DNA from: an uncultured Candidatus Binatia bacterium
Lineage (GTDB): Bacteria; Desulfobacterota; Binatia; UBA9968; CAXXLF01
NCBI GenBank assembly: GCA_965218425.1
Contig: OZ244621.1
Location: forward strand, 4,384,001 to 4,448,000
Reading direction: 5' to 3'
DNA: 64,000 bases
The notes beneath the pieces are model-generated. The model was not told the origin of the DNA and did no database searches. It saw only the letters and a list, made by a program, of their open reading frames with translations. The position numbers were made by a program, and so were the translations under genes. This document shows, one piece after another, positions 264 to 44,026 of the stretch (within the stretch, counting starts at the first letter, position 1; each line of letters opens with the position of its first letter).

Positions 264-1274
264 ATGCAGCTCCCACCCCTTGCAACCACCACCGTTGGTA
301 GCTTTCCCTGCCCGAGTTGGCTCGCCACAGTGGTACGAGGCGAGTCCACCTTTCGATTTGAGGGCGATACCCTACGAGAATCAAAGGACGATGCTACCAT
401 CATCGCCCTTCACGACCAGGAGGACGCAGGACTGGATCTGCTCACCGATGGAGAGCAACGGAGATCCAATTTCATCCATCATGTTATTAGTTGTTGGGAC
501 GGGATTGATTTTGCAAAGTTTGGCCTAAAGCACGAGTATCGTCGCCGGGTCCAAGAACGCATGCTGCCCCGTGTTATGGGGAGAGTCACGCGCCGAAACC
601 CCGCCGCATTAGACGACGTTCTCTTCGCAAAAGCGCATACGAGCTGGCCCATCAAGATGGCCGTGCCGGGTCCCATGACCGTCGTCGACAGTACGGTGGA
701 TGAAGCCTATGGCGATGAGGAGGCTCTGGCAATCGATGTGGCTGCGGCCCTCAATGCAGAGCTTCTCGATTTACAGGCGGCGGGCTGCGACGTTTTGCAG
801 ATCGATGAACCGGCTATGACCCGCTATCACAAAAAGGTGGCCGCCTATGGAGCCGAGGCACTTGATCGTTGCCTGGAAGGAATAAGTGTCCCGACCATCG
901 TTCATCTGTGCTACGGTTACCCCGGAGGGCAGAGTTTACAACACCATTTCGAATACCCCGAGTTGCTGAAATTGCTTTTGCAAACGCGAATCGGAGGTTT
1001 CGCCGTAGAGTTTGGCAGAAGCAGCTTTGACCCAGCCGTACTAGGGGTTTGCAAAGACCGTATCGTGATGTTCGGATGTGTGGACCCGGGAGACACACCG
1101 GTACCGCCCGTGCGTCAGGTGGTGAATCGGGTGCAGGGAGCATTAAAGCACCTGGACGCAGCAAAGGTGTGGCTCGCCCCGGATTGCGGCCTGATGACCA
1201 CTAGCCGTGAAATTGCCCGTGCTAAGGCCCGATTACTGGTGGGAGTTGCGCGGGAGATACGAGGGGCTCTCTGA
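264..1274 (+). CDS. Cobalamin-independent methionine synthase II (MetE C-terminal-like) family protein, Cys form
   Basis: TTVGSFP, TDGEQRR, QIDEP, HLCYGY and APDCG zinc-ligand motifs; single-barrel length, 336 aa. Confidence 0.85.
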   Translation: MQLPPLATTTVGSFPCPSWLATVVRGESTFRFEGDTLRESKDDATIIALHDQEDAGLDLLTDGEQRRSNFIHHVISCWDGIDFAKFGLKHEYRRRVQERMLPRVMGRVTRRNPAALDDVLFAKAHTSWPIKMAVPGPMTVVDSTVDEAYGDEEALAIDVAAALNAELLDLQAAGCDVLQIDEPAMTRYHKKVAAYGAEALDRCLEGISVPTIVHLCYGYPGGQSLQHHFEYPELLKLLLQTRIGGFAVEFGRSSFDPAVLGVCKDRIVMFGCVDPGDTPVPPVRQVVNRVQGALKHLDAAKVWLAPDCGLMTTSREIARAKARLLVGVAREIRGAL

Positions 1275-2295: not shown

Positions 2296-3396
2296 TCAGT
2301 GGATGAGGTGGTTGAGCCAAACGTGACGCCCTGGGTCGAGAGTTTTGTCTCTGAATCCGGAAAAATTGGGTCCGTAACGATAGGTCCGAAAGACTTGATT
2401 CACTCGGCCATTCTCCCCGTCAATAAAAAAGGGGCTTACGAACTCCCATACCACTTCCCTTTCCCGAGTAACCTCGAATAGACGTCCCTTCACCCCCTCG
2501 CAGATCAGAGTATTTCCGTTGGGTAATCGCTGTGCTCCGCTAACATGGCCGCTAAAGAAGTCCCATTGAGGACGAGCCTCGTAGCTCCACTCGATCTGAT
2601 TGGTTGTGGGATTGACCTCTACGATCCTGGATCCAGGAGAGTTGCCATAACGAGTAGAATGAAATCCATTGTCAAAGATCAACACGTTTCCATTATCGAG
2701 TAAAGAGGGATCGTGCTGATGGGCGAGCTCTCCTTTTCCCCACTTCCAGCGAAACCTTCCACTCCGTTTTTCAATAATCGCAACTGTGCTGATGACTCGA
2801 AAACTGGTCAAAATATCTCCGTCGGGGAGCACCTTGCAGGCGTTGGCATGGGTCCATTCCCGCCGCCCGCCGAGGGGGCAGATGACATCCTCCTCCGGAT
2901 CAAGGTGCTCGTGGCCGTGCCACTCCCAAACTGTTTTTCCATCAGGAGTAATCTCCCTGAAATAATCGGACCAGATGCCCTGGGGGTGCTCCGTGCCAGG
3001 AATACCTCCCTTGACCCGTTTTACCATGTCAGAAGGGATAAGCTCCCAACCCAATACCATGGTATTGCCGTTTGGCATACGACAAAAATCGTGGTGGAGA
3101 GTGGGTTCTTCATAGGACCAAACGACCTCACCTTCCCAGTTCATCTCCATAATCACGCCGCCGTTGCCACCGAATTGTACTGGACCCTTCTCCGTCCTAC
3201 CGGCCACGAGTAGACAACCATTTTCCAGTAGATAGCCATAGTCAGCCGGTAGGTATGGCAGATCCCAATGGTGAACCACGTTTCCGAGCATATCAATCAG
3301 ATAAACGTCGCGACCGCGCTGTGGAGCAAACAACGTGTAGCCATCGTAGGCTTGTCCGCGCTTATACCAGGTGAGACCTAACTTTTGCCCTGCCAT
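2296..3396 (-). CDS. Arylsulfotransferase (ASST)-like beta-propeller protein
   Basis: HHDF, WTHAN, HQHD, FDNG and SGAQRLPNGNTLICEG motifs; SD GAGGT. Confidence 0.85.
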   Translation of the reverse strand: MAGQKLGLTWYKRGQAYDGYTLFAPQRGRDVYLIDMLGNVVHHWDLPYLPADYGYLLENGCLLVAGRTEKGPVQFGGNGGVIMEMNWEGEVVWSYEEPTLHHDFCRMPNGNTMVLGWELIPSDMVKRVKGGIPGTEHPQGIWSDYFREITPDGKTVWEWHGHEHLDPEEDVICPLGGRREWTHANACKVLPDGDILTSFRVISTVAIIEKRSGRFRWKWGKGELAHQHDPSLLDNGNVLIFDNGFHSTRYGNSPGSRIVEVNPTTNQIEWSYEARPQWDFFSGHVSGAQRLPNGNTLICEGVKGRLFEVTREREVVWEFVSPFFIDGENGRVNQVFRTYRYGPNFSGFRDKTLDPGRHVWLNHLIH

Positions 3397-34282: not shown

Positions 34283-35096
34283 GGGCCTGTTAACACTAGC
34301 GTAACGCCTCGATGATGAGCGAGAAGAGGATGAAACCGAGGAAGATCACATCGAGCTTCTCGAAGCGGGAGAAGACTCGCCGGAAACCCTTCAGACGACG
34401 AAACAACCTCTCGATTTCGTTGCGTCGCTTCTACATGTGGCCATCGTACTGCCAAGGGTCGACTCGCGTGGCCAACGGCGCCACCACGGGTGTGAACCCC
34501 AGAGCCAGAGCCAACTGGCGTGTCTCGTTACCTTCATACGCCCGGTCCATGACGAGCGAGGGATTGTCGTGCTGCTGACCAGGGCGATTCAGCAACTTAC
34601 GTCGTTCTGGAGCGTCGTGGGCCTGTGCGGGGGAAAGCGAGAAGGTGATAGCCGTTCGAGCATCCGCGGCAACCATATGAATCTTGGTGCTCCACCCGCC
34701 GCGGGATTTGCCGATGGCTTGGGGACCGTTTTTTTTAGTGCCCCGGTCCCGTCGGGATGGACCTTGACGATGGTGGTGTCCATCGACACGGCCTCGATCT
34801 TGATGCGCACCATCTGCTCCCTCTGTAGTTGCTCGAAGACCTAGTCCAGCACCCCGTTCTTCGACCAGCGATTCATTCGAGTGTAGATCGTGTGCCAATT
34901 GCCCAACCGAGACGGTAACCCACGCCACTTGCAACCATGCTCCGCTACATACAAGATAGCGTTCAGCACCTGGCGGTTCGAAAGGCTGACATTACCCCAC
35001 TGCACCGCAAGCTACGGCGCAATACGGTCGTACTGGGCTTGAGTCAGTTCCATCCCCAAAGTGTAACGTATTTCCAGCATTAGTGTTTACAGGACC
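34283..35096 (-). mobile_element. IS5 family (IS427-like) element, 814 bp, degenerate
   Basis: IRs GGGCCTGTTAACACTA / TAGTGTTTACAGGACC flanked by TA (CTAG context). Confidence 0.85.
34296..35053 (-). pseudogene. IS5 transposase with A8 frameshift site and nonsense codons
   Basis: GCKWRGLP, DTTIVKVH, SRGGWSTKIH, MDRAYEG, RNEIERLF; TAGs at 35012, 34841, 34431. Confidence 0.85.
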
Positions 35097-35353: not shown

Positions 35354-35526
35354 AAAAATATATAGTGAATGAGGTATAGCCGGACAGGATCCCACTGGTT
35401 ATATCTTCCCCCTAGGATCTTTTTGTGGTTGCTATAGATCTATCCAGACTGATATATTGTCGGGACAGTAATTCTCCGGAGCCGATTCAGGAGGAACAGG
35501 GGCCGAGGCTAGCGGCCATCTCAGGA

Positions 35527-35925
35527 ATGAAAGATAAGGTCCATAAATCCGACGAGGAGTGGAAAAAGCGACTCACCCCTGAACAGTTCTACGTCTGCCG
35601 ACAAAAAGGCACCGAGGCGCCCTTCTCGGGAGAATACTGCAACTCCAAAGAGAAGGGAGTTTACCAGTGCACCTGCTGCGGCAACGATCTTTTCAGCTCA
35701 GACACAAAATTTGATTCCGGCACGGGCTGGCCAAGCTTTTGGCAACCCATCGCACCGCAGAACGTCGATACGGAAACCGACAACAGTCGTTTCATGGAGA
35801 GGATTGAAGTGATGTGCAGCGCCTGCGGCGCCCATCTCGGTCATGTGTTCGACGACGGCCCAAATCCCACGAACCTGCGCTACTGCATCAATTCCGTTTC
35901 CCTGAAACTCGCAAAGGATAAATGA
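35527..35925 (+). CDS. msrB: Peptide-methionine (R)-S-oxide reductase
   Basis: [29 protein letters not shown]; start moved to ATG 35527. Confidence 0.95.
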
Positions 35926-39102: not shown

Positions 39103-40362
39103 ATGAGCCTATTTGAGATCGCGGCCATTCTTTTAACCCTCGCCGCCTTGTTCAGCTATTTCAACGAGCGTTATGTGGGAATGCCCACCACCATTGGGCT
39201 CATGTTTATCTCCCTTGTGATCTCCTTGGCCCTGATTGGCATAGCGAGTATGGGCCTGGATGTGGAAAGCAGGGCCGAGTCGGTTCTCGCTGAGATCGAT
39301 TTCAGCGACCTCCTTTTGCACGGCATGCTGGGCTTTCTTCTCTTTGCCGGCGCCCTGCACGTCAACCTAGGGGACCTGCTACAACAGAAATGGGTCATCA
39401 GCTCCCTGGCCACCGCCGGTGTCCTGACCTCCACCCTCATCGTGGCCTTTTTAACCTGGATTCTGTCGCGTGTTCTGGGACTGGAGCTCCCCTTTATCTA
39501 CTGTTTGCTGTTTGGAGCTCTCATCTCTCCAACAGATCCCATTGCAGTGCTGGGAATTCTCAAAAGCGCCAACGCCCCCAAGAGCCTGGAAACCAAGATT
39601 ACCGGTGAGTCGCTGTTCAATGATGGGGTTGGTGTCGTGGTGTTCATCGTCCTTTTGGACATTGTCCGTGGTGGCCATGAACTGGATGCGTGGGAGGTGG
39701 TTGTTTTCTTCCTGCAGGAGGCCGTGGGTGGTGCGGTGTTCGGCCTGGCCACGGGGTTTTTGGTTTACTGGATGCTAAAGAGCCTGGACAACTACCCGGT
39801 GGAGATCCTTCTAACCATGGCTCTGGTCACCGGCACCTATGCCCTGGCAGAATCGCTGCATCTTTCCGCGCCCATCGCCGTGGTAGTGGCGGGGCTTTTG
39901 ATCGGGAACAAAGGACGTTCCCTGGCCATGTCGGAGAAGACTTGCGAGCACCTGGACTCTTTCTGGGAGCTGGTGGATGAGATTTTGAACGCCGTGCTGT
40001 TCGTCCTCATCGGCCTTGAGATCCTGGTACTTCAATTCAACGTGAGTTATCTACTGGCAGGTCTGGCGGCCATACCCATTGTACTGGCGGCACGATGGGT
40101 GAGTGTAGGTATTCCCATCAGCCTTCTCAGGCTACGCCGGGAGTTCTCTCCCAATGTGGTAAAGATCATGACCTGGGGCGGGTTGCGAGGCGGGATCTCG
40201 GTGGCCCTTGCTCTTTCCCTACCTACAGGTCCCGAGCGCGCTGTGATCCTGGCCATCACCTATACCGTGGTGGTCTTCTCTATTCTGGTGCAGGGTCTGA
40301 CCATCAGCCGACTCTTTCCTACCACCGCTGAGGACTCCGAAACAGACGTGGAAACTCACTAG
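39103..40362 (+). CDS. CPA1 Na+/H+ antiporter (NhaP-like)
   Basis: SPTDPIAV, GESLFNDG, WGGLRG motifs. Confidence 0.9.
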   Translation: MSLFEIAAILLTLAALFSYFNERYVGMPTTIGLMFISLVISLALIGIASMGLDVESRAESVLAEIDFSDLLLHGMLGFLLFAGALHVNLGDLLQQKWVISSLATAGVLTSTLIVAFLTWILSRVLGLELPFIYCLLFGALISPTDPIAVLGILKSANAPKSLETKITGESLFNDGVGVVVFIVLLDIVRGGHELDAWEVVVFFLQEAVGGAVFGLATGFLVYWMLKSLDNYPVEILLTMALVTGTYALAESLHLSAPIAVVVAGLLIGNKGRSLAMSEKTCEHLDSFWELVDEILNAVLFVLIGLEILVLQFNVSYLLAGLAAIPIVLAARWVSVGIPISLLRLRREFSPNVVKIMTWGGLRGGISVALALSLPTGPERAVILAITYTVVVFSILVQGLTISRLFPTTAEDSETDVETH

Positions 40363-40463
40363 TCTCCAATTTCAGGATGCCGAGGGCAAAAAAATAGGGG
40401 GACGGTATTCACCCCGCCCCCCTTTGTTGACTGCCCTGGCAGCGAATAGGGCTGTCTACACTT

Positions 40464-40754
40464 TTATTTCACAGTTACGGCACTTGCTGTCTTGCGATCG
40501 TCGTCCTCGTCATAGGTTGCAGAGACGCTTTGACCTTCCTTGATCTCGAAACGATCACCCACACCGTTGAGCTCCGTGCTGCCGCCGCTGATCCGAACCC
40601 GAACCGACTTACCATCATTCGACTTGATGGTGATATAGCGGCCCTCTCTCTCGATTGCGGCAACCTTTCCTTCCATGTCGGCTGCGAGCACGGAACCAGC
40701 CAATGACAGGCTGAACAGTACCACGGCGATTAAACTAAGTGGCTTCCTGACCAT
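40464..40754 (-). CDS. Small exported OB-fold-like hypothetical protein
   Basis: Signal peptide ending VLA; beta-rich mature part. Confidence 0.55.
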   Translation of the reverse strand: MVRKPLSLIAVVLFSLSLAGSVLAADMEGKVAAIEREGRYITIKSNDGKSVRVRISGGSTELNGVGDRFEIKEGQSVSATYDEDDDRKTASAVTVK

Positions 40755-40992
40755 TGTTTTTCGCGCCCTTTCCCGCTTAAATCAGTATCGGAGCGAATAC
40801 TATGGGATCGAAAATATGTCAAGCGCACACCACCTATGCGAAGGTTCATGGGCAACTCCGAATCTCATGTAATTTCAATTATTTGACTCTAAACGTTTGA
40901 TTTAACTTATATTTTATCTTTCTATTCTGGAAACATTTACTTGGAAAATTTGTTGCCTGGTGGAAGGAAACCCCTGATTTCCACAGTGGATT

Positions 40993-42102
40993 ATGATCAC
41001 TGAACGTGCCGATGTTGTTGGCAGTCTGCTTCGGCCGTCCGGGCTGCTGAAGGCTCAGAAGCAGGTGGCCACCGGGACCATTGACCGGTCCAGTTTTAAG
41101 GCCATCGAGGATCGGGCAGTGGACGAGGTGGTATTGCTGCAGGAAGAAGCGGGACTTGGCATCGTCACCGACGGTGAAATGCGCAGGCAGTCCTTCCAAA
41201 GCCAGATGACGGAAGCGGTTGATGGCTTTGGTGAATATACCATGGATGCCTTCCTCTGGGGTGAATGGCATGGCGACAAGAACGTGGGTGATTGGAGCCT
41301 GGAGCGTCCCAGCACTTTAGGGGTAGTGAAAAAGCTTAGTCGAAAACGATACCTTTCCGTGGATGAGTACACCTACCTGCGATCGCGCACCACGCGGATA
41401 CCCAAGATCACCCTGCCAAGCCCCAGCCTGTTTGCTAACTTCTGGTCTCCAGAGCGTTCCAAACGAGCCTATCCTACACTGGATCATCTCCTGGCTGACA
41501 TTGTCGATATTCTTCGGGGCGAGGTTACGGAGCTGACTCGGTTAGGAGCTACGTATATTCAGCTAGATGCACCCCATTACTGCTTACTGTTAGATCCGAA
41601 AACGAAGTCGTTCTATGAGTCCCGGGGATGGCGTGCCGATCGATGGCTCCAGGCCGGCATCGAAATGGATAACGCCGTGTTGGGCGAGGTTTCTCAGGTC
41701 ACTTTCGGGTTTCATCTCTGACGGGGTAATCAAGGCAGCCGGTGGCTGCTGGAGGGAGGCTACGACCTTCTCGCACGACAGGTCTTTAGGGAAATCCGCG
41801 CAGAGCGACTCTTGCTGGAATATGACGACCCGCGTTCCGGATCCTTTGAACCGTTAAAAGAAGTGCCAGACGGAAAAATCGCCGTTCTCGGACTGGTTTC
41901 CACCAAGGGACCAAGACTGGAGACCCAAGCGGAGTTGGTCAAAAGAATTCACGAAGCAAGCCGATTCCTGCCCCTCCAGCAACTAGCCGTCAGCCCGCAG
42001 TGCGGATTTTCCACATCTGTAATCGGCAATCGGATTTCAGCGCGGGATCAGAAGCAAAAGCTTCGTGCAGTGGTTGAAGCCGCTCATTCGGTATGGGGCT
42101 AA
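40993..42102 (+). CDS. Cobalamin-independent methionine synthase II family protein, probable selenoprotein (Sec243), 369 aa
   Basis: DVVGSLLRP, TDGEMRR, QLDAP, FHL-TGA-RGN (family motif HLCRGN); frame stays open through LLEYD and SPQCGF to TAA 42100-42102. Confidence 0.8.
41734..41750 (+). promoter_or_regulatory. Candidate bacterial SECIS hairpin
   Basis: (G)GCAGCC-GGT-GGCTGC(T); first loop G lies 20 nt after the TGA at 41719-41721. Confidence 0.7.
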
Positions 42103-42223: not shown

Positions 42224-42892
42224 ATGGCAAACCAACAATTTATTGACTCGCTCTTAAAGGATATCATCCAACCAGGCTTGAAGCGTCTCATGGAGACCCG
42301 TTTCTTCACGGAATTAAGGGAGGGAAAGCTCTCCAACAAGAGACTCCAGGGGTTCGCATTGCAACACTACCTCCACAACATCTCCATCAACAAGGGTTTT
42401 GCCCTGTGCATGGTAAAGAACGCTCACATCCCGGAGCTATACGCTCATTTCGAGCACCAGTTTAACGAGGAAGGCCCTCACCCCGATCTGGCAAAAAAAT
42501 TTGGCATTGCCGTTGGACTCAAAGAAGAGGACTTCAAGGCTATTACCCCGGTCTTTGAGTGTTTGGCTCACACCAGCGCCGTTCTTCGGGGCATGCTGTT
42601 GGGGTCCCCCGGGGAGAACCGTGCGGGGGCCCTGGTAAATGAAACCATGGTTTGCCGTTACTCGGAAGAATTTGATACCTACCTGCACAAGAACTACCAG
42701 CTCTCGGACGATGCCTGTGAGTTTTTCTCGGTCCATGCAGTGGCGGACAAGGAACACACTCAGTTGGCGGCGGAGGTGATCATGCGTTTCGCCCAAACTC
42801 CACAGGAGCAGGAGGCTGCACGGGTGAACGCCCTTAACATGGCTCGGTTCAAGGTTGCAAAATTCGACGGTATCTACGAAAGCTACAATTAA
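42224..42892 (+). CDS. Heme-oxygenase-like (PqqC/TenA/CADD) iron-containing redox enzyme
   Basis: EEGPH and FFSVHAVADKEH diiron-type motifs; 222 aa helical protein. Confidence 0.75.
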   Translation: MANQQFIDSLLKDIIQPGLKRLMETRFFTELREGKLSNKRLQGFALQHYLHNISINKGFALCMVKNAHIPELYAHFEHQFNEEGPHPDLAKKFGIAVGLKEEDFKAITPVFECLAHTSAVLRGMLLGSPGENRAGALVNETMVCRYSEEFDTYLHKNYQLSDDACEFFSVHAVADKEHTQLAAEVIMRFAQTPQEQEAARVNALNMARFKVAKFDGIYESYN

Positions 42893-42955
42893 TTTAATTC
42901 GTTCCCGATCCTCTGCCGATCAAATCCTGCTTTATTTTCTTTGGAACCACAGAAC

Positions 42956-44026
42956 ATGCGCCACCGTGACGTTGGAGTCGTTAGTATTGATTCTACGCAG
43001 ACGATGCCCGGCTACACCCTCATCGTGCCGCTGTCGGGCAAGTCCGCATATCTCATCGGCTTGCGAGGAGAGATCCTCCATCAGTGGAGCTTTCCCTTCA
43101 CCCCGGGAAACTATGCCTACCTCCTACCCAATGGCAACCTCCTCTGGTCGGGCCGGACCCCAGAAGGCCCTCCCATCCCACAGGGAAAGGGCGGCATCCT
43201 GCGCGAGTACAACTGGGCGGGCGAAGTCCTTTGGGAGTATCGGGATCCTGGGCAGCACCATGACTTTCGCCGGCTCACCAGCGGGAACACCATTTATATC
43301 GGGAGAGAGCCCGTTCCACAGGACACGGTTTCAAGGATCAGGGGAGGCCTCATTGGAACGGAACACGACGGCCAGGTTTTTGGCGACTACCTGCGGGAAG
43401 TAAACGCCAAGGGAGAGACTGTCTGGGATTGGCACGCTCACCGGGATATGGAGTTGGATCGCTACATGATTTGTCCTTTGTGCGCAAGGGACGAGTTCGC
43501 CCACGCTAACACATGCGCCCCGCTTCCCGATGGCAACATCATGATCAGCTTCCGCCGCCTCAACATGATCGCCGTCATCGATCGAGAGACGCGCCGATTT
43601 TGTTGGGAGCGCCGGGACGACACCTGGGGGCATCAGCATGACTGCCACCTTCTGGCGAACGGGAACATCCTTTTATTCGCCAACGGATTCCATGGCACGG
43701 GCACGTCATTTTCCAGGGTCCTCGAACTAAACAAGGACACAGGGGAAACCGTCTGGGAGTACCAGGGTTGGCCACCATACACTTTCTACAGTCCAAACAT
43801 CAGCGGAGCCCAGCGACTACCCAACGGAAATACCCTCATTTGCGAGGGACGGACTGGCCGGGTCTTCGAAGTGACCCACGGCAAGGAAATCGTTTGGGAA
43901 TATGTCTGCCCTTATTTCGCAGCCTACGGTCCGGAGGGTCCATCCAACGCCTTGTTTCGCTGTTATCGTTACGCGGGTGACTCACTCGAGATTGCTGGAA
44001 GGGTCTCGACTTCGCTGATCCGGTAA
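42956..44026 (+). CDS. Arylsulfotransferase (ASST)-like protein
   Basis: QHHDF, FAHAN, HQHD, SGAQRLPNGNTLICEG; paralogue of 2296-3396. Confidence 0.85.
   Translation: MRHRDVGVVSIDSTQTMPGYTLIVPLSGKSAYLIGLRGEILHQWSFPFTPGNYAYLLPNGNLLWSGRTPEGPPIPQGKGGILREYNWAGEVLWEYRDPGQHHDFRRLTSGNTIYIGREPVPQDTVSRIRGGLIGTEHDGQVFGDYLREVNAKGETVWDWHAHRDMELDRYMICPLCARDEFAHANTCAPLPDGNIMISFRRLNMIAVIDRETRRFCWERRDDTWGHQHDCHLLANGNILLFANGFHGTGTSFSRVLELNKDTGETVWEYQGWPPYTFYSPNISGAQRLPNGNTLICEGRTGRVFEVTHGKEIVWEYVCPYFAAYGPEGPSNALFRCYRYAGDSLEIAGRVSTSLIR

Follow-up and report, generated by a model that had tools for sequence, protein, structure and literature searches.

A MetE-like gene of an uncultured Candidatus Binatia bacterium with an in-frame UGA predicted to encode selenocysteine at a zinc-ligand position

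The locus and its reading frame

The stretch analyzed here, referred to as the window, comprises 64,000 nucleotides from an uncultured Candidatus Binatia bacterium (contig OZ244621.1 of assembly GCA_965218425.1, forward-strand positions 4,384,001 to 4,448,000; the genome is designated G000). The gene under study encodes a protein resembling the catalytic domain of MetE, the cobalamin-independent methionine synthase. An open reading frame (ORF) of 242 amino acids on the forward strand (40993-41721) ends at a TGA codon (41719-41721) directly after the residues F-H-L, as the original prediction, which was made from the DNA alone, had described. When this TGA is read through, the frame, in which it is the single in-frame TGA, remains open until a TAA at 42100-42102, the sole next stop. 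The resulting protein has the 369 residues foreseen in that prediction and reads ...FGFHL-U-RGNQGSRWLLEGGYD...LLEYD...SPQCGF.... With good confidence, we regard the locus as an intact gene in which selenocysteine (Sec) is inserted at the UGA of codon 243, in a zinc-site position of a MetE-like enzyme. Insertion of Sec at codon 243, as judged from the sequence comparisons below, is in itself very likely. The principal features, including a hairpin resembling a selenocysteine insertion sequence (SECIS), are as follows.

40993-42102, forward strand: complete coding sequence of the predicted Sec-containing MetE-like protein, 369 residues followed by TAA, in one frame with the TGA read through
41713-41715, forward strand: codon of His241, the predicted zinc-ligand His (E. 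coli H641), invariant and part of the HxC motif
41719-41721, forward strand: in-frame TGA, codon 243, predicted to encode Sec; it coincides with the first Cys ligand of the zinc in E. coli MetE (C643) and stands opposite an invariant Cys in 10 homologues
41734-41750, forward strand: SECIS-like hairpin with a 7-bp stem (41734-41740 paired with 41744-41750) and a GGU triloop (41741-41743), located within the codons that specify G-S-R-W-L-L
41818-41820, forward strand: codon of Glu276, the probable zinc-ligand Glu (E. coli E665), invariant and at the end of the predicted strand 272-276
42001-42003, forward strand: codon of Cys337, the predicted second zinc-ligand Cys (in SPQCGF; C726 of NPDCGL), invariant and following the predicted strand 331-335

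Protein family and fold

The results from Pfam searches indicate that PF01717 (Meth_synt_2, the MetE catalytic domain) spans residues 9-364 of the read-through product (56.2 bits; cut-off 21), while the N-terminal folate-binding domain PF08267 has no match anywhere in the 369 residues. The protein is likewise distinct from the canonical two-domain MetE of about 750 residues, since its TIGR01371 score is 43.2 bits, the cut-off being 929.95. The best NCBIfam models, both aligned over the full length, are PRK06520 (NF005085; 234.7 bits) and PRK06233 (NF004875; 210.7 bits). Relatives in the protein database number in the thousands; the best 120 are mostly 369 residues long and 65-71% identical to the window protein, and those among them that carry a name are annotated as "cobalamin-independent methionine synthase II family protein". 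The closest solved structure by sequence is PDB 1YPX from Listeria (HMMER; E value 1.7e-45). The AlphaFold model of the Sec protein (mean pLDDT 85; pTM 0.88) was used as a Foldseek query and retrieved 1YPX as the top match, together with the MetE structures of C. albicans and T. maritima and with MesD (PDB: 3RPD), at TMq values of 0.70-0.72. Most likely, then, the gene product is a single-domain MetE-type TIM-barrel enzyme, as predicted from these sequence and model comparisons.

The nearest known proteins are the Cys-containing members of the PRK06520/PRK06233 group, to which 1YPX belongs. At 66-71% identity, they have the same 369-residue length, a single PF01717 domain and the same motifs, but contain Cys where the window protein has UGA/Sec. 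No tested function for this subfamily was found in the literature covered. With MetE itself (E. coli b3829; T. maritima, PDB: 1T7L and 1XDJ; C. albicans, PDB: 3PPF and 4L5Z) the window protein has the catalytic-domain fold in common (TMq 0.71-0.72), and it keeps both the zinc pattern HxC...E...C and the homocysteine-binding Ser, Glu and Asp. It differs from the E. coli enzyme in the absence of the folate domain, in its low identity to the C-terminal domain (22%), in Sec replacing C643, and in about 10 additional residues between the HxC motif and the Glu. A third point of comparison is provided by MesA-MesD, described in the accessible part of Price et al. 2021 (PMC7857596) as core folate-independent methionine synthases which are single-domain, have the same zinc site and use donors other than methylfolate. 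MesD (3RPD) matches the fold of the window protein (TMq 0.72), although sequence similarity is weak (E value 2.7e-7), and no Sec form of the Mes families is reported in that part of the same paper (PMC7857596).

The zinc site and substrate-binding residues

In E. coli MetE the zinc ligands are H641, C643, E665 and C726, while S433, E484 and D599 contact the substrate homocysteine (PMC7857596, accessible part); this numbering was verified on the annotated metE of E. coli K-12. The proposal in the original prediction that HxC...E...C is the zinc site of the family agrees with this published MetE site. The corresponding residues of the window protein, H241, residue 243 (Cys or Sec), E276 and C337, are invariant across homologues, including a distant paralogue and E. 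coli MetE, and the residue opposite position 243 is Cys in all 10 homologues aligned. The paralogue at 264-1274 of the window also has Cys at this site, within VHLCYGY, as had been noted beforehand. In the HMMER alignment with C. albicans MetE, H-L-C pairs with H-F-C and SPQCGF pairs with NPDCGL. Based on these motif alignments, the TGA falls at the C643 position and hence at the first Cys ligand of the catalytic zinc. Residues S11, E62 and D192 align with E. coli S433, E484 and D599, respectively.

Active sites of TIM-barrel enzymes lie at the C-terminal ends of the strands. In the AlphaFold model the ligand residues are at the C-terminal ends of the predicted strands 237-242, 272-276 and 331-335. 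Such a site would likely form a zinc-selenolate center.

Conservation of the TGA codon and selection on the flanking sequence

Orthologues of the Sec protein (E value at or below 1e-100) were found in 56 of 123 genomes of the order to which the window organism belongs, with 57 matches at 58-100% identity. Exactly one TGA is present in 56 of these matches and none in the remaining one, and 55 of the 123 genomes have the TGA form. Three unpublished genomes (G376, G392 and G374) are among the 55; without them the count is 52 of 120, and no other claim depends on them. At all 33 loci of the order that were inspected (L021-L029, and L068-L092 without L077), the TGA occupies the identical codon within H-[LVI]-U-R-G-N. 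Thus, the comparison recommended with the original prediction had the outcome expected for a Sec codon: homologues have Cys opposite the TGA and orthologues keep the TGA.

The sole match within the order that is devoid of TGA (1 of 57; locus L093, G379:C376) has TGC at this codon, on a contig that ends before the gene does. The nucleotides around the site in L093 are close to those of neighboring Sec forms, and this resemblance suggests a reversion from Sec to Cys.

A scan with one genome per species recovered 27 loci, with TGA at the codon in 6 and a Cys codon (TGC or TGT) in 21. The TGA loci belong to Gemmatimonadales (2), Dehalococcoidia (1), Terriglobia (1), an unclassified bacterium (1), and a record labeled "Candidatus Binatia" (1), the last being 88% identical and from the window organism's own genus. 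A second Terriglobia genome with the TGA form is represented by L102. Altogether, TGA was found at the same codon at eight loci outside the order (L042, L043/L096, L056, L059, L063/L101, and L102). Conservation of the in-frame TGA at this codon exceeds chance expectation.

Among 11 orthologue pairs, the 7 that were usable, i.e., those in which the synonymous rate (dS) was unsaturated on both sides of the TGA, gave ratios of nonsynonymous to synonymous change (dN/dS) downstream of the codon in the range 0.083-0.127 for six pairs and of 0.372 for the seventh, whose two sequences are nearly identical, while the upstream values were 0.093-0.233. Relaxed selection past the TGA, which was named beforehand as a result that would speak against recoding, is therefore absent, and the low downstream ratios indicate that the part after the TGA is translated. 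Elsewhere, TGA serves as an ordinary stop. It terminates the same gene directly past the last conserved residues in 4 of 9 orthologues, and it ends 589 of 1734 long open frames of the genome in a crude six-frame count. The recoding is therefore specific to codon 243.

Selenocysteine machinery

The genome encodes selA (507.7 bits), selB (413.3 bits), selD (378.2 bits) and tRNA-Sec (selC; 76.5 bits), all above their curated cut-offs, so that the machinery whose absence would have spoken against the original prediction is present in full. The genes form a compact cluster outside the window (G000:C1:1301208-1311984). The selD gene of this genome has itself one in-frame TGA (...KASGUAAKLG...). A candidate stem-loop with a GUU triloop (GUGCAA-GUU-UUGCAC) was read by eye 33 nt downstream of the selD UGA, although the minimum-energy fold obtained for this stretch with ViennaRNA is a different structure. 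The candidate GUU loop hints at a loop type in common with the hairpin of the MetE-like gene.

The occurrence of SelA parallels that of the TGA form. Outside the order, a true SelA (E value at or below 1e-124) was detected in all 5 of the TGA-form genomes tested compared with 1 of 5 genomes with the Cys form, and within the order it exceeds the cut-off in 39 of 41 genomes. A Sec-type formate dehydrogenase was not found in the window genome, the best TIGR01553 match scoring 101 bits and containing no TGA.

The downstream hairpin

The original prediction placed a hairpin, GCAGCC-GGT-GGCTGC, 13 nt past the TGA. It is located at 41735-41749, and a G-U pair between 41734 and 41750 makes the stem 7 bp long. 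The first loop G, at 41741, lies 20 nt past the A of the TGA, the distance stated there. The bSECISearch consensus for bacterial elements comprises a stem-loop immediately 3' of the UGA whose apical loop is small and carries a G about 16-37 nt downstream. These characteristics are found here, namely a 7-bp stem and, 19 nt after the UGA, a GGU loop, which are conserved with compensatory changes.

The hairpin was compared between 38 Sec forms (alignment A2; 35 distinct rows for the pairing counts) and 20 Cys forms (alignment A3), a contrast which treats related sequences as independent, with 32 of the 38 Sec forms coming from one order. In the Sec set 95.1% of the cells pair, a value reached by none of 500 shuffles. 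Where the third base of the Gly codon pairs with that of the Leu codon, five cells have changed on both sides in a synonymous and compensatory manner. In the 35 Sec rows this pair is CG in 27, GC in 3, AU in 1, GU in 1 and unpaired in 3, while the Cys rows have CG in 9, GC in 3 and no pair in 8. Hence the hairpin is retained among orthologues, the result that had been anticipated for a functional element. The median fold energy is -11.1 kcal/mol for Sec forms and -8.1 kcal/mol for Cys forms. All 38 Sec forms have a triloop of the sequence GGU (33) or GUU (5) and in no case GCU; its middle base, which is the third position of an Arg codon, is accordingly G in 33 and U in 5, while it is C in 11 of the 20 Cys forms. 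The peptide encoded at the hairpin is Q-G-[SG]-R-W-L in the Sec forms, and the Cys forms also have QAS, QNN and QKN. By itself the hairpin is weak evidence for Sec; the Sec forms show added constraint.

Observations weighing against the assignment

Several observations count against reading codon 243 as Sec in a MetE-type zinc site. The 47-nt stretch with the hairpin folds at -14.9 kcal/mol compared with -12.3 +/- 2.2 kcal/mol for shuffled sequences (z -1.17), and 25 of 200 shuffles fold as well. No Rfam family, and hence no curated SECIS, matches within 41650-41850. Five of the seven stem pairs are fixed by the conserved peptide GSRWL, in whose codons the hairpin lies, and therefore Cys forms pair too (83.6% of cells), some of them (L044 and L045) with the identical hairpin. 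The relatedness of the sequences compared, mentioned above, bears on the same contrasts.

Beyond the hairpin, the genome G005, whose locus L024 has the TGA form at 65% identity, yielded no selA, selB, selD or tRNA-Sec above cut-off, in an assembly of 240 contigs with a nominal completeness of 100%. Because the four sel genes lie within 11 kb in G000, one unassembled or unbinned contig would account for the gap; either such a missing contig or a recent loss of the Sec trait may be the reason. With regard to function, the Sec protein scores below the curated cut-offs of its nearest NCBIfam models (234.7 versus 313 for PRK06520; 210.7 versus 576 for PRK06233). No partner gene is common to all of the 26 loci whose surroundings were compared (the window plus 10 and 15 further loci; ORF cut-off 90-100 residues), and the variable neighborhood names no pathway. 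Finally, the assignment of Glu276 is ambiguous, as the E. coli and Candida Glu take different positions in the MAFFT and HMMER alignments. Glu276 was chosen as the probable zinc ligand because it is invariant, lies at a strand end, and is separated from C337 by 61 residues, which is the spacing between E665 and C726 in E. coli.

Proposed mechanism and alternative readings

In the proposed mechanism, the UGA at codon 243 would be decoded as Sec by the SelA, SelB, SelD and tRNA-Sec of the genome, with SelB recruited most likely by the stem-loop (7-bp stem, GGU loop) that begins 13 nt after the UGA. The catalytic zinc site would consist of His241-x-Sec243...Glu276...Cys337, forming a Zn(His)(Sec)(Cys)(Glu/substrate) center. 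If MetE is taken as the model, an amino-acid substrate, for instance homocysteine, would be bound to the zinc through its thiolate or selenolate and activated there, and an alkyl (methyl) group might then be transferred from some donor to the zinc-activated thiol or selenol. Selenium could offer a softer, always deprotonated ligand which raises the nucleophilicity of the zinc-bound substrate. Another possible gain over sulfur is better recovery after oxidation. Conservation of both the zinc and the homocysteine-binding positions points to such a zinc-activated alkyl transfer to an amino-acid thiol or selenol, as in MetE.

In the alternative that survives best, which we consider unlikely, Sec would be inserted but would act as the catalytic nucleophile or redox center, for example through a methyl-Sec intermediate or a selenenylsulfide with Cys337, with an organosulfur or organoselenium compound in place of homocysteine as the substrate. 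This would agree with the role of Sec as the reactive residue in most known selenoproteins (PMC13188914, accessible part), with the absence of a folate domain, and with scores under the curated methionine-synthase cut-offs. The surroundings of some loci also favor it. At locus L059 of an unclassified bacterium (L059:1835-5473), the Sec gene is located between an EgtD-like gene (PF10017; E value 5e-110) and an EgtB-like gene (PF03781 and PF12867) of the sulfoxide/selenoneine-synthase type. EgtD-like histidine methyltransferase and EgtB-like genes are biosynthesis genes of the ergothioneine/selenoneine type. A convergent gene for a TauE/SafE-type exporter is present at three loci of the order's second family (L024, L027 and L028), and at two Cys-form loci (L054:2092-5478 and L057:2110-5483) the gene has at its flanks a gene for a TauD-family dioxygenase and one for an OYE-type flavin oxidoreductase, a gene arrangement that looks like organosulfur scavenging. 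However, each of these links is confined to few loci, and the four zinc-ligand and three homocysteine-binding positions of MetE are all retained. Moreover, Cys forms are common in the orthologous group (21 of 27 loci), and the reaction must therefore be feasible with Cys at position 243 as well.

It is very improbable that the TGA is read through in another way, by a near-cognate tRNA or with insertion of Trp, Cys or Gly, without selenium. The weakness of the hairpin as a single sequence, the lack of a matching curated SECIS model, and the retention of the TGA form in G005 without detectable sel genes would suit such a process. They are set against the presence of SelA in every TGA-form genome examined outside the order, as opposed to one in five with the Cys form, and in nearly all (39 of 41) genomes within it; against the position of the TGA exactly opposite Cys, which is the usual Sec/Cys pair; against the use of TGA as a terminator of the same gene and of frames genome-wide; and against the hairpin features that distinguish Sec from Cys forms. 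The least credible alternative, a pseudogene created by a nonsense mutation or a split gene whose 242-residue and C-terminal pieces are made separately, could draw on the fact that gene callers would end the gene at 41721 and on a TTG-started ORF of 96 residues at 41812-42102, but the TGA is retained in 55 genomes of the order (58-100% identity), and dN/dS is near 0.1 both before and after it. Moreover, the stretch of 30 codons that separates the TGA from TTG 41812 (RGNQGSRWLLEGGYD...) ranks with the best-conserved parts of the protein and is preceded by no start codon, and a scan for promoters and terminators found neither a promoter nor a terminator-like site between the halves.

The checks run on the interpretation in the original prediction were favorable throughout to reading codon 243 as Sec. 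A more far-reaching proposal, which we regard as doubtful, is that the family would provide the first natural example of an enzyme whose catalytic center is a zinc-selenolate. The enzyme would transfer alkyl groups with organosulfur or organoselenium amino acids as substrates, for example in ergothioneine/selenoneine or selenohomocysteine metabolism, with Sec either tuning the zinc-bound nucleophile or carrying the alkyl group. The gene might then be one main reason for which the order keeps its Sec machinery, a suggestion prompted by the fact that a search of the genome revealed no formate dehydrogenase of the Sec type.

Relation to known selenoproteins

To our knowledge, nearly all known selenoproteins are redox enzymes. 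The prototype of a bacterial selenoprotein gene with a SECIS inside the ORF is E. coli fdhF. Compared with such genes, the window gene has the UGA opposite Cys, a stem-loop just 3' of it with G and U in a small loop, and selA, selB, selC and selD in the genome. Binding of Sec to a catalytic metal is described for FdhA (Mo/W) and for [NiFeSe] hydrogenases (Ni), where it serves redox catalysis (PMC13188914, accessible part). In the window protein, by contrast, the metal would be zinc in a non-redox, alkyl-transferring site.

Table 1 of the same review, published in 2026, lists 119 prokaryotic selenoprotein families and subfamilies and is presented there as the most comprehensive inventory; it has no PF01717 or MetE-like entry, and the nearest families listed, a CobW-related selenoprotein and the SO_0444 Cu/Zn efflux transporter, are predicted metal binders only (PMC13188914). 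None of the nine new selenoprotein families given in the accessible part of the deep-Sep report (PMC12013277) is MetE-like, and no MetE-like selenoprotein is contained in 12 of the 14 supplementary files of PMC4807772. A full-text literature search returned no report of a selenoprotein or selenocysteine form of MetE, of PF01717 or of a cobalamin-independent methionine synthase, and no selenoprotein model of NCBIfam release 20 matches the Sec protein. The predicted MetE-like Sec protein is a type of selenium protein for which no description was found in the literature searched.

If the assignment is true, Sec at the ligand position of a Lewis-acid zinc in an alkyltransferase fold would add to the roles in which selenium is known, and the Sec and Cys forms would provide a natural pair for studying ligand softness and the reactivity of zinc thiolates. 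Since gene callers stop at codon 242, the protein would be mis-annotated as a fragment or pseudogene in 55 of the 123 genomes of the order. The gene would also bear on why the lineage retains its Sec machinery, given that no Sec-type FdhA was found in the genome.

Distribution and origin of the Sec form

A quick IQ-TREE analysis by maximum likelihood (56 rows, L093 not among them) places all 36 Sec forms and three Cys forms from Terriglobia on one side of a branch with an SH-aLRT support of 89, and the tree requires two changes between Sec and Cys. This fits a Sec form that arose once, spread from phylum to phylum and occasionally reverted to Cys, as in the three Terriglobia rows and in L093. 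Beyond the order, orthologues are rare. The orthologue is absent from all 299 sampled genomes of the phylum outside the order, and from all 150 other genomes examined in the class of the Gemmatimonadales genome. In the Terriglobia class it is present in 7 of 151 genomes, 2 of which have the TGA and 5 of which do not.

A second paralogue containing a TGA (G000:C1:3089474-3090394), located outside the window, was considered as a further Sec gene and rejected. Its TGA lies upstream of the conserved part and it has Cys at the zinc site (VHLCRGNNRSQW), so this TGA does not mark a Sec site. It shares 39% identity, does not include about the first 60 residues of the family, and is a truncated or short copy.

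Neighboring genes and other features of the window

Two further features were used in the comparisons.

264-1274, forward strand: Cys-containing MetE-like paralogue of 336 residues, for comparison only (PF01717, 116.8 bits; 26% identical to the Sec protein; HLC at the site)
42224-42892, forward strand: haem-oxygenase-like / TenA-PqqC family protein of 222 residues (PF14518, PF03070)

No conserved neighbor from the methionine pathway was found among the 26 loci, and the region upstream of the gene (40350-41100) contains no Rfam match and no methionine-related riboswitch. In the window, a Na+/H+ exchanger is encoded upstream, while the genes downstream encode the haem-oxygenase-like/TenA protein, an arylsulfotransferase-like protein and a protein with a metallo-beta-lactamase fold. 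The haem-oxygenase-like gene is found downstream of the Sec gene at three loci, those of the window, of G001 (L022) and of G002 (L023), and is thus conserved within the family of the organism.

Genes for arylsulfotransferase-like beta-propeller proteins (PF14269/PF05935) are present at 2296-3396 on the reverse strand and at 42941-44026 on the forward strand, each about 1 kb from one of the MetE-like genes of the window. The two proteins are 46% identical to each other, and this proximity could reflect a functional pairing or be coincidental. A DDE transposase fragment (34431-34934, reverse strand; a weak match to PF01609) and a gene for MsrB with its SelR domain (35425-35925, forward strand) are located about 5-6 kb upstream of the Sec gene.

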